This document shows positions 24,106 to 30,134 of a stretch of 64,000 nt of DNA, one piece after another. Every line of letters starts with the position of its first letter. Position 1 is the stretch's first letter. The position numbers were made by a program, and so were the translations under genes. The notes under the pieces were generated by a model. It was not told the DNA's origin. It saw nothing but the letters and a program-made list of their open reading frames with translations, and did not search any database. Source of the stretch: an uncultured Pseudomonadota bacterium. GTDB lineage: Bacteria; Oederibacteriota; Muellerivitia; Muellerivitales; Muellerivitaceae. Location: positions 1 to 64,000 of the forward strand of contig CAVYRH010000008.1 of NCBI GenBank assembly GCA_963770835.1, written 5' to 3'.

Positions 24106-25488
24106 TTAAAAACGAATCCTTGTGGCCTCATCGATACTCTTTGAAATCACTTCGATAAAATAGGCCAAATCCTTTTTGGAAATACCCAGGGGGGGCATGA
24201 CGACAATCACGTTGCCCAGGGGCCGCATCAACACTCCCCTTTTCTTGGCCTCGGCACAGACGCGGTAGCCCATCTTCTTTTCATAAGCATAGGGCTCGTT
24301 TGTTTTCTTGTTTTTAACAAGCTCAATGCCCCCCATCATGCCCCGCAAGCGGACATCCGACACATGGGGATGGGCGACGAGGGGTTCCAAAAGTTCCTGA
24401 AGCATCTGGCTTTTTTCTTGGACTCCTTCAAGGAATCCCTTTTTCTCCATCAATTCAAGGTTCGCCAGGGCCGCCGAACAGCCCAATTGGTTTCCTGTAA
24501 AGGTATGTCCATGGTAGAAAGTCCGTAAGGAGTCAAAGGGACCCAAGAAAGCCCTGTAGACCTTCTCGGTTGTCAGGGTAGCTGCCACTGGAAGGTAGCC
24601 ACCCGTAAGGTTTTTGGCTACGCAAAGCAAATCGGGTCGCACACCCTCCTGTTCACAAGCGAACATCGTTCCCGTGCGCCCAAAACCGGTCGCCACCTCA
24701 TCCAGAATCAATAACACGTTATAACGGTCGCATAACCGCCGGATAGCTTTCAGGTAACCCCATGGGTGCACCAACATGCCACCCGCCCCTTCGATCAAAG
24801 GTTCCATATGAACACCAGCTAAGCGGGATCCATACTTGCGGAAAGCGGCCTCCGCCTCCCTCACACTGTCCTTCAACCATTTATCATTCGAGACCTTACG
24901 GCTGGAATAACCGTGGGGACTTTTGATTTTGAGGGTTTTAAAAAGCATGGGGCCGAAGATTCCGTGGAAGAGGTCGATCCCCCCTAAGCTGACCGAGCCA
25001 ATGGTGTCCCCGTGATAGCCTTCCCGCACAGTCAGGAATAAGTTCTTCTTCGGCTTCGCGGGCCTAATTTGCTTCCAATATTGGAAAGCCATCTTGGCGG
25101 CGATCTCGTTGGCTTCCGACCCCGAATCGGAGTAAAAGACGCGAGTCAGCCCTTTGGGGACCAGCTTAACCAACTTTTCCGCAAGCAGGATGGCGGGCTC
25201 GTTGGAAGCTCCCAACATTGTGGAATGGGCGATCTTTTTGAGCTGTTTTTGGATGGCCCGGTCGATTTCCGAAACCTGGTGGCCATGGACATTACACCAG
25301 AGGGACGAAACACCATCCAGGTACGTTCGTCCCTTGACATCGTAGAGATAGGTCCCTTTCCCCCGCGTGATAATGGTAATGTCCGGGTCCTTCACCCATT
25401 CCTGTTGTTGGGTAAAGGGATGCCAGAGATATTTCTTATCCTTTGAAGCAAGCTGTGTGTGTTTCATGTTTTTTGAGATCCCGCTCAC
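24106..25488 (-). CDS. bioA: Adenosylmethionine-8-amino-7-oxononanoate aminotransferase
   Basis: LWHPFTQ, DGVSSLWCNVHGH, YHGDTIG, DEVATGFGRTG, AKNLTGGYLP, HGHTFTGN, MRPLGN. Confidence 0.95.
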   Translation of the reverse strand: MSGISKNMKHTQLASKDKKYLWHPFTQQQEWVKDPDITIITRGKGTYLYDVKGRTYLDGVSSLWCNVHGHQVSEIDRAIQKQLKKIAHSTMLGASNEPAILLAEKLVKLVPKGLTRVFYSDSGSEANEIAAKMAFQYWKQIRPAKPKKNLFLTVREGYHGDTIGSVSLGGIDLFHGIFGPMLFKTLKIKSPHGYSSRKVSNDKWLKDSVREAEAAFRKYGSRLAGVHMEPLIEGAGGMLVHPWGYLKAIRRLCDRYNVLLILDEVATGFGRTGTMFACEQEGVRPDLLCVAKNLTGGYLPVAATLTTEKVYRAFLGPFDSLRTFYHGHTFTGNQLGCSAALANLELMEKKGFLEGVQEKSQMLQELLEPLVAHPHVSDVRLRGMMGGIELVKNKKTNEPYAYEKKMGYRVCAEAKKRGVLMRPLGNVIVVMPPLGISKKDLAYFIEVISKSIDEATRIRF

Positions 25489-25979
25489 AACATTAATTGC
25501 ATGTAAGCAACATCAAGCCAGAGGCCAAATTTATTCCCGACTTCGTTGATCTTCCCCCCGTGGGAAAACCCGAACTTTTTATGGAGTTTTATACTCGGGT
25601 CCTGATCATTGGAGATGATCGCGATGATCGTATGGAACCCGGCCGCTTTCGAGCGCTTGATCAAATCCCCAAGCAAGGCCTTTCCAATGCCCTTATGAAG
25701 CCATTCGGGGTGGATATAAACCGAATTCTCGATGGTTTTTCCGTAAGCGGCCCTGGGGTGGAACCGAGAACCCGATGCCCAGCCAATGACTCGGCCATCC
25801 AATTCGGCGACTGTAACGAAATAAGGCTCTTGATGTTCTTCGAACCACCGGGCACGTTCGACTGAAGTTGAAGGTTCGGTCTGATAAGTGCAGGTGGAAT
25901 GGGAGACATAGTAATTATAGATGTCGTTGACGGCTTCCAGATCGGCCGCAACCGCTTTTCGGATGGATGCGTCTTTCAT
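25485..25979 (-). CDS. GNAT N-acetyltransferase (phosphinothricin/methionine sulfoximine acetyltransferase-like)
   Basis: [42 protein letters not shown]; overlaps both neighbours by 4 nt. Confidence 0.9.
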
Positions 25980-26647
25980 TTAATCATCCCCAACTTCGCC
26001 AAATCTTCCGCCAACAAATCGAGATTCGCCCGGTATTTAAGGTTGAATTTCAACGGGCCATAAACTGGAATCTTTAAAAGCTTTCGGAGCGCCGGGACAT
26101 TGGTCTTTTCCGAAATCTCCTTCCCTTTATATCCATTCACCATAACGCCCAGAATCTTAATTTTCCTTTTTTTGAGCGCCTCGATGGTCAGCAAAGTGTG
26201 ATTGAGGGTTCCCAATCCAGCCCATGCTATCACCAGCGCCGGAAGTCTCCACTTCACCATCCAATCGATCGCCAGGAAATCACGAGTAATGGGAACCAAA
26301 ACCCCGCCGATCCCTTCCACAATCAGGCAATCATATTTTCTCGTGACCTTTTTATAGGTTTCTTGAATTTTTCCCAAAGGAACAGTGCCCTCTTTCCAAG
26401 CCGCCACATAAGGCGCGAGGGGTTGCCGGTAGTGAACGGGCACAATCTCAGGATAAACGGCGTTCGGCAACCGGGCTGCTTTTTGGAGAAGTTTGCCGTC
26501 TCGGCTGGGAATGCCTCCGGAGGCGATGGGCTTCATGACCCCGACCCGGACACCTTGGTTTACCAGCATTCGCGCCAAGCCGGCGGCAACAAGGGTTTTA
26601 CCCACGCCCGTGTCGGTACCAATTACGAAAAAGGATTTCATAATCAC
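25976..26647 (-). CDS. bioD: Dethiobiotin synthetase
   Basis: [32 protein letters not shown]. Confidence 0.95.
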
Positions 26648-26648
26648 C

Positions 26649-28219: not shown

Positions 28220-28227
28220 TCTGTCAC

Positions 28228-29406
28228 CTAGCACTTCGAGAATACAACTGCGCCCAATTGCCCGCCAAAGCCGTAAGAAAGGGACATCACATGATCCACC
28301 TTCTGCCGCACCCCGCCTTTTTCCACGTGCCGTATCCGGCATTGGGGATCGGGTTTGCTCAAATTACGGGTATCGGGAATTTCACCTCGATTCAAAACCA
28401 TGGAGGAAATAACCGCTTCCACGCTTCCGGCGGCTCCCAGTAAATGCCCCGTGGCTCCCTTGGTGGAACTCACCCAGGGACCGGCATCCCCAAAAACCTT
28501 GTTCAAGGCCTTGGATTCCACTTCGTCATTAAGCCTTGTTCCAGTCCCATGGGCGTTGACGTAGCCGATATCGGAAGGTTTTAACCCGGCTTTACACAGC
28601 GCCCTTCCAATCAAGGGCACAATGGTATTTCCATTGGGCTCCATTTCCAATGCACCAAAGGCATCGGCGCCCAAGGCCCAACCCGCGAGCCGGGCCAATA
28701 TAGGGGCTTTCCTTTTTTTTGCCGACTTTTCCCTTTCCAAAATCATGACCGCAGCCCCTTCCCCCATCAAAAAGCCATCCCGCTCAATATCAAAGGGCGC
28801 TGGGCCGCCGTCCTTTTGGCTTAAGATTCCCATGTTTCGGAAGGCCGCATAGATGAGGGGATGAATAGAGGCTTCAGTGCTGCCGGTTAAGACCGCGTCG
28901 CATTCCCCGTCCAGGAGAAGCCTTGCCCCCCCGGCAATGCTGGCGATGCCCGTGGAGCACGCGGAAGAAAACGAAAGGGACGGGCCGAAAAACCCGAAGC
29001 GCTCCGCCAACAGCCTGCCCCCCGCGTGTGGAAAAAAGTCGGAAAGAAAATCCCAGGTGACTGTGGGGTCCTCCCTTTCCTCCAGAAGGCTGAGCACACC
29101 ACCCTTACTGGAAGAAAAAGTGGTGGCGATTCTTCCGGGAGGAACCTTATAAAGACCTGCTTTTCGCCAAGCCTCCTCGGCGGCGATAACCCCGAATTGG
29201 AGGGACCGGTCCTTTTGAATGAACCGCTGGGGCACCCAGGCTTCCAAAGTCTGTGCGGCACGGGGGTTTTCAAACATCTTCCATTCCAGACCCTCCAACC
29301 GCCGCCCGGCCGACTCTCCCCCCATGAGGGTCTTCCAGGTGTTGTCCACGTCCGGGCCCAAAGGCGTGACCATGCCCCACCCCGTGACGACAATGGAATC
29401 ATTCAT
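28228..29406 (-). CDS. Beta-ketoacyl-ACP synthase (divergent FabF/FabB-like)
   Basis: VVTGWGMVTPLG; C-H-H triad in SACST, AHGTGT, GHLLGAAG; PFDIERDGF; SYGFGG; ATG 29406 overlaps the upstream stop (ATGA). Confidence 0.9.
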   Translation of the reverse strand: MNDSIVVTGWGMVTPLGPDVDNTWKTLMGGESAGRRLEGLEWKMFENPRAAQTLEAWVPQRFIQKDRSLQFGVIAAEEAWRKAGLYKVPPGRIATTFSSSKGGVLSLLEEREDPTVTWDFLSDFFPHAGGRLLAERFGFFGPSLSFSSACSTGIASIAGGARLLLDGECDAVLTGSTEASIHPLIYAAFRNMGILSQKDGGPAPFDIERDGFLMGEGAAVMILEREKSAKKRKAPILARLAGWALGADAFGALEMEPNGNTIVPLIGRALCKAGLKPSDIGYVNAHGTGTRLNDEVESKALNKVFGDAGPWVSSTKGATGHLLGAAGSVEAVISSMVLNRGEIPDTRNLSKPDPQCRIRHVEKGGVRQKVDHVMSLSYGFGGQLGAVVFSKC

Positions 29407-30134
29407 AACCATCCCGGAAGCCTCGAATCCAAGTTGAATACCTGCCCTGAAATGGTTTGAGTACCCGCCAGCCAAACCATAAAATCCGCCACCTCGTTCA
29501 AGTCGGTGGTTTTTCCCAAAAGGTGACGTTTTCGGATGGCTTCCTCGGCCTCAGGCGAAAGATTGTCCGCGATGCGGGTCTTGTGGAAACCCGGGCATAC
29601 CACGTTAGCCCTTATGTTCCTGCCGCCGTATTCCTTGGCCAAACTGCGGGCCAAGCCAATCAGACCGGCTTTGGCGGAGGTATAAGCCCCTTGCCCGATG
29701 TTCCCGGTGGTGGCCACCACCGAGGAGATGAAGACAAGTTGCCCCGATTTCTGCTTCAGCATGGGCTTCAGGCAGGCCTTGGAAAGGTGGAATGCCCCTG
29801 AAAGATGGACCCCCAGGGTGGCATCCCAATGGGCCTCCTCGACGTTCAAGAGGCGGGCGTTCCAGGTGGCCCCGGCGTTGTGGATGGCGCAATCCAACCG
29901 TCCCCATTTTTCCAAAACCCCCTCGACGAGGGTTCCCACATGATCGCCGTTGGAAACATCGCATTTGGCCAGCCAGAAGTCCCGGGTCAGCCCGGAATAT
30001 TCCCCGGAAGCCAAACGGGCCGACTCCTCGTCCTCATGGTAACAAGCGGCTACCGCCCAGCCTTTTTGGGCGAAAGCCTTGCCCAGGGACAAACCGATGC
30101 CGCGGGTTCCGCCGGTGATTAAAAGGACTGGCAT
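29403..30134 (-). CDS. 3-oxoacyl-ACP reductase-like SDR (FabG-like)
   Basis: TGGTRGIG, HNAG, SSVV..GNIGQGAYTSAK (YxxxK), NVVCPGF. Confidence 0.9.
   Translation of the reverse strand: MPVLLITGGTRGIGLSLGKAFAQKGWAVAACYHEDEESARLASGEYSGLTRDFWLAKCDVSNGDHVGTLVEGVLEKWGRLDCAIHNAGATWNARLLNVEEAHWDATLGVHLSGAFHLSKACLKPMLKQKSGQLVFISSVVATTGNIGQGAYTSAKAGLIGLARSLAKEYGGRNIRANVVCPGFHKTRIADNLSPEAEEAIRKRHLLGKTTDLNEVADFMVWLAGTQTISGQVFNLDSRLPGWL

Follow-up and report, generated by a model that had tools for sequence, protein, structure and literature searches.

The closest described counterpart of the genes considered here is found in Desulfovibrio, for which a fab-like route to the pimeloyl precursor of biotin was predicted by Rodionov et al. 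(PMC545781) and in which, according to a study using random barcode transposon sequencing (RB-TnSeq), a D. vulgaris cluster that encodes a ketosynthase (KS), a ketoreductase (KR), an acyl carrier protein (ACP) and two FabZ-like proteins is needed in the absence of biotin (PMC10102598). The authors of that study leave the biochemistry open and judge the cluster to be limited to a few anaerobic phyla. Elongation of a free-carboxyl chain by fatty acid synthesis has long been argued to be blocked by hydrophobic pockets, as recounted in PMC7645780. For many bacteria it has yet to be settled how the pimelate arm of biotin is made; PMC11257099 describes pimelate synthesis as unclear in Endomicrobiaceae, and PMC7133116 describes the source of pimelate as undetermined for Synechocystis. 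Here we analyze a biotin operon in which a KR gene and a KS gene stand upstream of bioF, located in a stretch of 64,000 nucleotides (hereafter the window: positions 1 to 64,000 of contig CAVYRH010000008.1) from an uncultured bacterium of the Muellerivitaceae (Oederibacteriota in GTDB). An earlier note on this DNA had mentioned a linkage of fab and bio genes in deltaproteobacteria, and this linkage is real, as far as PMC545781 and PMC10102598 describe it. It is very likely that the KS/KR pair of the window serves biotin synthesis. Judging from sequence comparison, we further consider it reasonably probable that the KS extends unmasked malonyl twice on the housekeeping ACP, with a lysine that anchors the omega-carboxylate and stops the chain at C7, that the KR takes 3-oxoglutaryl, and that FabZ and FabI finish the cycles.

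The two genes and the codons at issue are these (C-numbers below denote contigs of the window's own genome, G000, and G- and L-numbers the compared genomes and loci):

29403..30134, minus strand: KR, FabG-like, of a biotin-linked subfamily, with catalytic S138/Y151/K155, H184 and a C-terminal DSR (S237-R238)
29583..29585, minus strand: codon of KR His184 (Ile in housekeeping FabG)
29421..29426, minus strand: codons of KR Ser237-Arg238 (Gly-Gly in housekeeping FabG)
28228..29406, minus strand: KS of the FabF fold, Cys-His-His type (C150, H286, H321, with K316), carrying the SSSKGG motif
29104..29106, minus strand: codon of KS Lys101, aligned with the back-gate Ile108 of E. coli and B. subtilis FabF

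Against the FabF model TIGR03150, the KS scores 298.8 bits (cut-off 493.75), and the FabF encoded on C11 of the same genome 633 bits. All the catalytic residues, C150, H286, K316 and H321, are intact in the KS, so that the earlier description of a divergent enzyme keeping the Cys-His-His triad holds. The AlphaFold model (predicted local distance difference test, pLDDT, 89.9) matches FabF structures with a template modeling (TM) score of about 0.94. In the alignment, SSSKGG corresponds to SGIGG of FabF, which places Lys101 in the Ile108 column, occupied by Phe in the structure of the B. subtilis FabF I108F mutant; the partner Phe of the gate is retained (F189). The basic residue of the acyl pocket on which the earlier note had speculated is found at this position. 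In FabF, as reviewed in PMC9006962, I108 and F202 form a back gate that is met by a six-carbon chain, and the I108F substitution restricts elongation to short chains. All 40 close KS homologs share Lys101, and the gate lysine is also present in eight KSs from Elusimicrobiota and two from family f3, each directly upstream of bioF (among the loci listed); in housekeeping FabFs this column holds Ile, Met or Val. Two further alignments (A3 and A4) were selected by motif, so the invariance of the lysine in them is no evidence, the evidence being the linkage counts given below. In a quick maximum-likelihood tree of 73 KSs, a branch with an SH-aLRT of 90 separates all 36 Lys- or Arg-gated sequences from both KS paralogs of G000, a topology that allows a single origin. 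All told, the KS is likely to be a specialized FabF paralog.

Two other groups of sequences bear on the gate column. The KS of G133 has Lys in this column (DGKP) and groups with polyketide synthase-like KSs in the tree; its genome is without bioD, and it was left out of the counts. Two KSs with a gate Arg (GCGRGG) or Lys (SSGKGG) and no bio neighbors (L183:4231-5466 and L102:8386-9591) branch beside the group with the gate lysine.

The KR scores 204 bits against the FabG model TIGR01830 (cut-off 298), keeps S138, Y151 and K155, and yields a model with a pLDDT of 86.6 in which residues 239-243 at the C-terminus have low confidence. His184 and Ser237-Arg238 are found in 48 of 48 bio-linked copies, whereas all 35 housekeeping FabGs compared have Ile and Gly-Gly; 50 loci had been supplied for this count, and the two that were dropped at the E-value threshold have DSR/DTR. 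The KS and the KR are each about 34-38% identical to the FabF and FabG of their own genome, and the KR, too, is likely a specialized paralog, in this case of FabG. In 17 of the 19 readable loci of the family and in 26 of 28 Elusimicrobiota loci, the KR gene comes before the KS gene. KRs of the DSR type also occur in bio operons without an adjoining KS that carries the gate lysine (Lys-KS), namely L094 (G024), L359 (G048) and L357 (G297); the FabFs read in these three genomes have the ordinary Ile gate.

How widely is this pair of genes conserved? A KS ortholog is present in 20 of 24 genomes of the same family (49-83% identity), and in 19 of these 20 bioF lies further downstream, sharing contig and strand with the KS, once after a 10-kb insert, the 20th locus being cut by a contig end. 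Among the four family genomes without the KS (G019, G024, G009 and G017), G019 (97% complete) has lost the whole block, with the upstream gene joined straight to rimO and bioB also absent; in G024 (93%), the KR stands directly before bioF; and the absences in G009 and G017 seem to reflect gaps in the assemblies. In two genomes from a different family of the phylum, a thioredoxin gene adjoins KR-KS-bioF-bioD (among the loci listed; the genome scan returned 80 of 590 confirmed loci). BioC over the cut-off was found in none of 40 relatives, and the single match near the cut-off (171 bits) adjoins bioF in another family, the KSs of which read non-Lys. In another member of the phylum, G035, a BioU-like gene (L091:7892-8884; NF047886, 402 bits, cut-off 600) lies between bioB and bioF, and neither BioC over the cut-off nor a Lys-KS at 1e-40 was found in this genome.

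In Elusimicrobiota, eight loci among those listed have the KS directly before bioF, four of them within bioB-KR-KS-bioF-bioD, and several Lys-KSs of this phylum lie inside bioB-KR-KS-bioF-bioD-bioA. Of 101 Elusimicrobiota genomes sampled, 40 have bioD and eight have BioC (six over the cut-off and two at 163-183 bits adjoining bioD), and the KS profile has 104 matches at E<=1e-75. A Lys-KS is present in 28 of the 101 genomes, and all 28 are bioD-positive; the motif was read in 26 of these, the copy of another is cut off by a contig end next to bioF, and the remaining one has a frameshift and is known only via its bioD locus. At E<=1e-75, none of the 61 bioD-negative genomes has a Lys-KS, and none of the eight BioC-bearing genomes has one. 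A bio gene lies within the fetched locus in 26 of the 28. Four bioD-containing genomes are without KS, BioC and BioW, and one of them has a DSR-type KR between bioB and bioF. The KR-KS module persists in genomes of 1.0-1.4 Mb, and palindromes similar to the BirA site (consensus from PMC545781) lie upstream of two bioB-KR-KS-bioF operons (L131:6082-6115 and L136:5698-5730). Among 61 genomes of Planctomycetota, the Lys motif occurs in five of the 22 top matches, four of these five genomes have bioB, and BioC over the cut-off was found in none of the 61. The carriers of a Lys-KS include Endomicrobium sp. and Gimesia algae. In two planctomycete loci, L357 and L164, bioB or a bioF-like gene has an ordinary Ile-gated FabF as its neighbor; L357 also has a KR read as DAR-type. 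The KS/KR module is real and conserved across phyla, and the linkage of KS orthologs to bio genes, which the earlier note had proposed to examine, extends from the window's own family to another family of its phylum and to Elusimicrobiota.

Could the pimeloyl precursor nevertheless be produced by a known route encoded elsewhere in the genome? The assembly (4.58 Mb, 96.4% complete) has a housekeeping plsX-fabH-fabD-fabG-acpP-fabF cluster on C11, the FabF and FabG of which pass the cut-offs, so that the window genes are additional copies, as the earlier reading had presupposed. In agreement with the same reading, bioB and the ACPs lie on other contigs: bioB stands alone on C19, and the only two ACPs of the genome are on C11 (in the fab cluster) and on C4 (in a second KS cluster). 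The FabA/Z family is confined to C5, where a FabZ domain ends a 465-aa frame that is LpxC-like by the reading of its N-terminus, and C4, which also has a FabI-like motif. BirA, encoded on C5, appears by inspection to be without an N-terminal helix-turn-helix, and a biotinyl-domain protein is encoded on C26. Genome-wide profile searches extend the absence of bioC, bioH and bioW from the window to this 96% complete assembly: the best match to BioC scores 73.8 bits (cut-off 185) and that to BioH 65 bits (cut-off 207), and BioG and BioW (PF03744) have no match. No combination of BioC with an esterase was found among BioC, BioH and BioG, with BioK, BioV, BioJ and BtsA not individually searched. The genome has no BioZ paralog, its sole FabH being the one in the fab cluster, and a crude scan for the P450 heme motif gave no credible match for BioI. 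A ferritin-like diiron oxygenase of the BioE type is not encoded in the operon; an AurF-family gene without an NCBIfam match lies upstream of the C4 KS cluster, no BioE profile having been used. None of the outcomes that the earlier note had named as contrary to its idea was obtained, and its interpretation is supported, the choice of primer (malonyl or glutaryl) being a matter of inference.

The C4 cluster itself (C4:694448-698044; L009:8467-14256) is of type II and consists of genes for a KS, a KS-like partner, an ACP, a FabZ-like protein, a KR, a phosphopantetheinyl transferase and a methyltransferase. Before bioB, a TGTTATACT-like extended -10 element is conserved across the family (C19 of G000 and L366-L375).

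A simple scheme could accommodate these findings. The KS would take its malonyl from malonyl-ACP, Lys101 and the preceding Ser-rich strand would hold the free carboxylate, and condensation with a second malonyl-ACP would give 3-oxoglutaryl-ACP. The dedicated KR would reduce this short, charged intermediate, after which the housekeeping FabZ (the one fused to LpxC, on C5) and the FabI-like enzyme (C4) would complete the cycle on the housekeeping ACP. A second round would give pimeloyl-ACP, and Lys101, by closing the pocket at about C6, would prevent reloading of the C7 product and so replace the stop signal provided by BioH. BioF, BioA, BioD and the unlinked BioB would then finish biotin, the two GNAT proteins of the operon being uninvolved. 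Since E. coli FabG, FabA and FabI already process free-carboxyl 3-ketopimeloyl-ACP in vitro, as reported in PMC7645780, a dedicated KR makes most sense at the C5 step, which favors two rounds from malonyl.

Several observations weigh against this scheme or the evidence for it. There is no dedicated ACP or dehydratase, unlike in Desulfovibrio. The locus of the family lies inside a long syntenic block, so that linkage at the family level is weak evidence by itself, and in Planctomycetota the Lys-KS adjoins a bio gene in only one of five genomes. The Fisher tests for Elusimicrobiota (p=8e-16 and 6e-6) overstate the association because the genomes are related, and the gate motif was read in 67 of the 104 KS matches of this phylum, the other ~37, all of FabF length, being unread. 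Three genomes, G001, G012 and G023 (98, 99 and 90% complete), keep KS-bioF-bioD and have no bioB at 1e-60; they may have a divergent biotin synthase. In G001 and G005 the KS is present but the KR is missing, and no DSR-type KR was found elsewhere in either genome; conversely, G024 (93% complete) and G048 have the KR together with bioF/D/A, but a Lys-KS was not found in them. The placement of Lys101 rests on the alignment and the fold match, and the support for monophyly of the Lys/Arg-gated KSs is below 95. Finally, the Arg147 proposed to bind the carboxylate in BioZ proved non-essential, two Ser residues holding the carboxylate instead, according to PMC12625853; because this Arg is dispensable, the importance given here to K101 may be too great.

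The alternative that survives best is a single round similar to that of BioZ, in which the KS condenses a catabolic glutaryl thioester once with malonyl-ACP and the KR reduces 3-ketopimeloyl-ACP. Such chemistry is feasible, as BioZ shows in the account of PMC7645780, the glutaryl carboxylate would reach the back gate at K101 given the geometry reported in PMC9006962, and the loss of the KR in G001 and G005 fits with the housekeeping FabG handling the C7 intermediate. Under this alternative, however, a dedicated, invariant KR would be superfluous, yet it precedes the KS at the frequencies given above in both the family and Elusimicrobiota; the module is retained in the 1.0-1.4 Mb genomes; and a crude motif scan of G000, admittedly a weak test, detected no acyl-CoA dehydrogenase or CaiB. 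We regard the single glutaryl round as unlikely. Distinctly less plausible is a masked chain, whereby an undetected methyltransferase/esterase pair, or a GNAT, would modify the primer and the KS and KR would be tuned to ester intermediates. G000 has 22 matches to class I methyltransferases (the best being that of 73.8 bits) and an alpha/beta hydrolase that scores 65 bits, and divergent substitutes for BioH are known. However, genuine BioC genes score 141-230 bits in the same searches and adjoin bio genes, whereas in G000 the best matches lie away from bio genes, and the hydrolase has a higher score against PcaD; Lys-KS and BioC are mutually exclusive in the Elusimicrobiota sample; a free acid would suit basic residues better than an ester; and most of the loci are without GNATs. 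That the KS and KR make another lipid or polyketide, with the bio neighbors a matter of chance synteny, is the most improbable of these options: although the family locus belongs to a long conserved block, most planctomycete Lys-KS genes are unlinked to bio genes, and bioF/D/A occur without the KS in G024, G048, G035 and G032, in another phylum bioB and bioF enclose the module, the KS and KR were lost together with bio genes in G019, and a Lys-KS is found in none of the 61 bioD-negative and none of the eight BioC-positive Elusimicrobiota genomes.

Two rounds of unmasked malonyl elongation would thus remain the preferred reading, and a tentative generalization can be attached to it, one that we consider possible but would not bet on. 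The Lys-gated KS together with the His/Arg KR might constitute a widespread, unnamed, O2-independent route to pimeloyl-ACP on the housekeeping ACP, as in an old proposal ('three malonates, no mask'), with the lysine as both anchor and stop. It might be the missing first stage in FCPU426, Planctomycetota and Elusimicrobiota, Endomicrobiaceae among them, and possibly also, via PRK05952-like enzymes, in cyanobacteria. If so, annotation gaps in several phyla would be filled, and there would be a way to pimelate or other dicarboxylic acids that is free of S-adenosylmethionine and of an esterase. The two-gene module is a small candidate that lends itself to direct testing, and K101, which takes the place of FabF I108, is a defined target for mutation.

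In the window, the operon is encoded on the minus strand in the order KR > KS > GNAT > bioF > bioD > GNAT > bioA, and both the order and the junctions are as first claimed, with 4-nucleotide stop/start overlaps at four junctions (ATGA three times and GTGA once) and gaps of 8 and 1 nucleotides at the other two. The remaining genes are the following:

27800..28219, minus strand: GNAT1, an acetyltransferase, variable passenger
26649..27803, minus strand: bioF (TIGR00858, 461 bits, cut-off 426)
25976..26647, minus strand: bioD, dethiobiotin synthase (TIGR00347, 159 bits, cut-off 83)
25485..25979, minus strand: GNAT2, PAT/ArsN1-like (below cut-offs), passenger
24106..25488, minus strand: bioA, diaminopelargonic acid aminotransferase (TIGR00508, 524 bits, cut-off 405)

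Thus bioF, bioD and bioA are above the NCBIfam cut-offs, and the KS and KR belong to their families but do not reach the housekeeping cut-offs. Homologs of GNAT1 are present in four of the 17 relatives that have the KS and bioF in one locus, and a homolog of GNAT2 in none of 20 family loci; GNAT1 has a 60% paralog on C15 and the lowest GC content in the operon (0.46). Given these counts, and with neither gene seen in the listed Elusimicrobiota operons, a role of the GNATs in loading or masking the primer was rejected, and by their distribution both are variable passengers outside the KS/KR module. No BirA operator was found upstream of the window operon or of bioB at 2+2 mismatches, and the promoter scan is at chance level (six found versus 5.3 expected). 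Upstream of the operon, a gene for a membrane protein with two Mrr_cat (restriction-endonuclease-like) domains (31829-33577) is kept in 16 compared loci, the window included. Elsewhere in the window there are two related DDE transposase genes (DUF772 + DDE_Tnp_1; 15538-16581 and 18530-19573), 3 kb apart, with a peptidase M24 gene and a small open reading frame between them, and a bacterial alpha-2-macroglobulin gene (48916-55776) accompanied by a PBP1C-like gene (41977-44325), the usual pair.

How, then, does the module compare with the known systems? By the tests applied, the KS is not BioZ, FabF or PRK05952. With the housekeeping FabF and FabG (TIGR03150 and TIGR01830), the pair has in common the fold (TM 0.94), the catalytic residues and the front-gate Phe, but it falls below the equivalog cut-offs and differs by Lys in place of Ile108 and by the His/Arg signatures of the KR. 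The PRK05952 ketosynthases (NF004618), which we take to be mainly cyanobacterial, are the top NCBIfam match for three Elusimicrobiota Lys-KSs and only the 10th for housekeeping FabF; all proteins tested are below the 455-bit cut-off (the window KS scores 244.5), and none over it was found in 10 genomes or, likewise, in Synechococcus elongatus. Searches of the open-access literature found no description of a two-gene KS/KR module, of the gate lysine or of the biochemistry of such a module.

BioZ of alpha-proteobacteria is likewise a dedicated KS that circumvents BioC-BioH and takes substrates with a free omega-carboxyl, as described in PMC7645780 and PMC12625853. In these accounts, however, it is a FabH-like enzyme of the Cys-His-Asn type, CoA-primed and acting in a single round, with no dedicated KR, whereas the window KS has the FabF fold, a Cys-His-His triad and a partner KR. 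A KS of the Desulfovibrio type (DVU2563) was found at none of 70 bioF-like loci of a Desulfobacterota-side sample and at none of three further bioD loci. In D. vulgaris (DVU2558-DVU2565 and DVU1220), the cluster also has a specialized ACP and FabZ-like genes, whereas the window cluster and the related loci read have neither, there being only two genes; a hidden ACP or dehydratase was sought in the gaps of related operons, where none is conserved and the gaps are filled by unrelated inserts, and the listing of open reading frames in these gaps (the genome was not searched) revealed no counterpart of the nitroreductase-like helper DVU1220. What the two systems do have in common is a KS and a KR within the bio cluster and a genome without bioC and bioH, the best matches being far below the cut-off here. 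The module of the window is probably a pared-down form of the unmasked pimeloyl pathway of the Desulfovibrio type.

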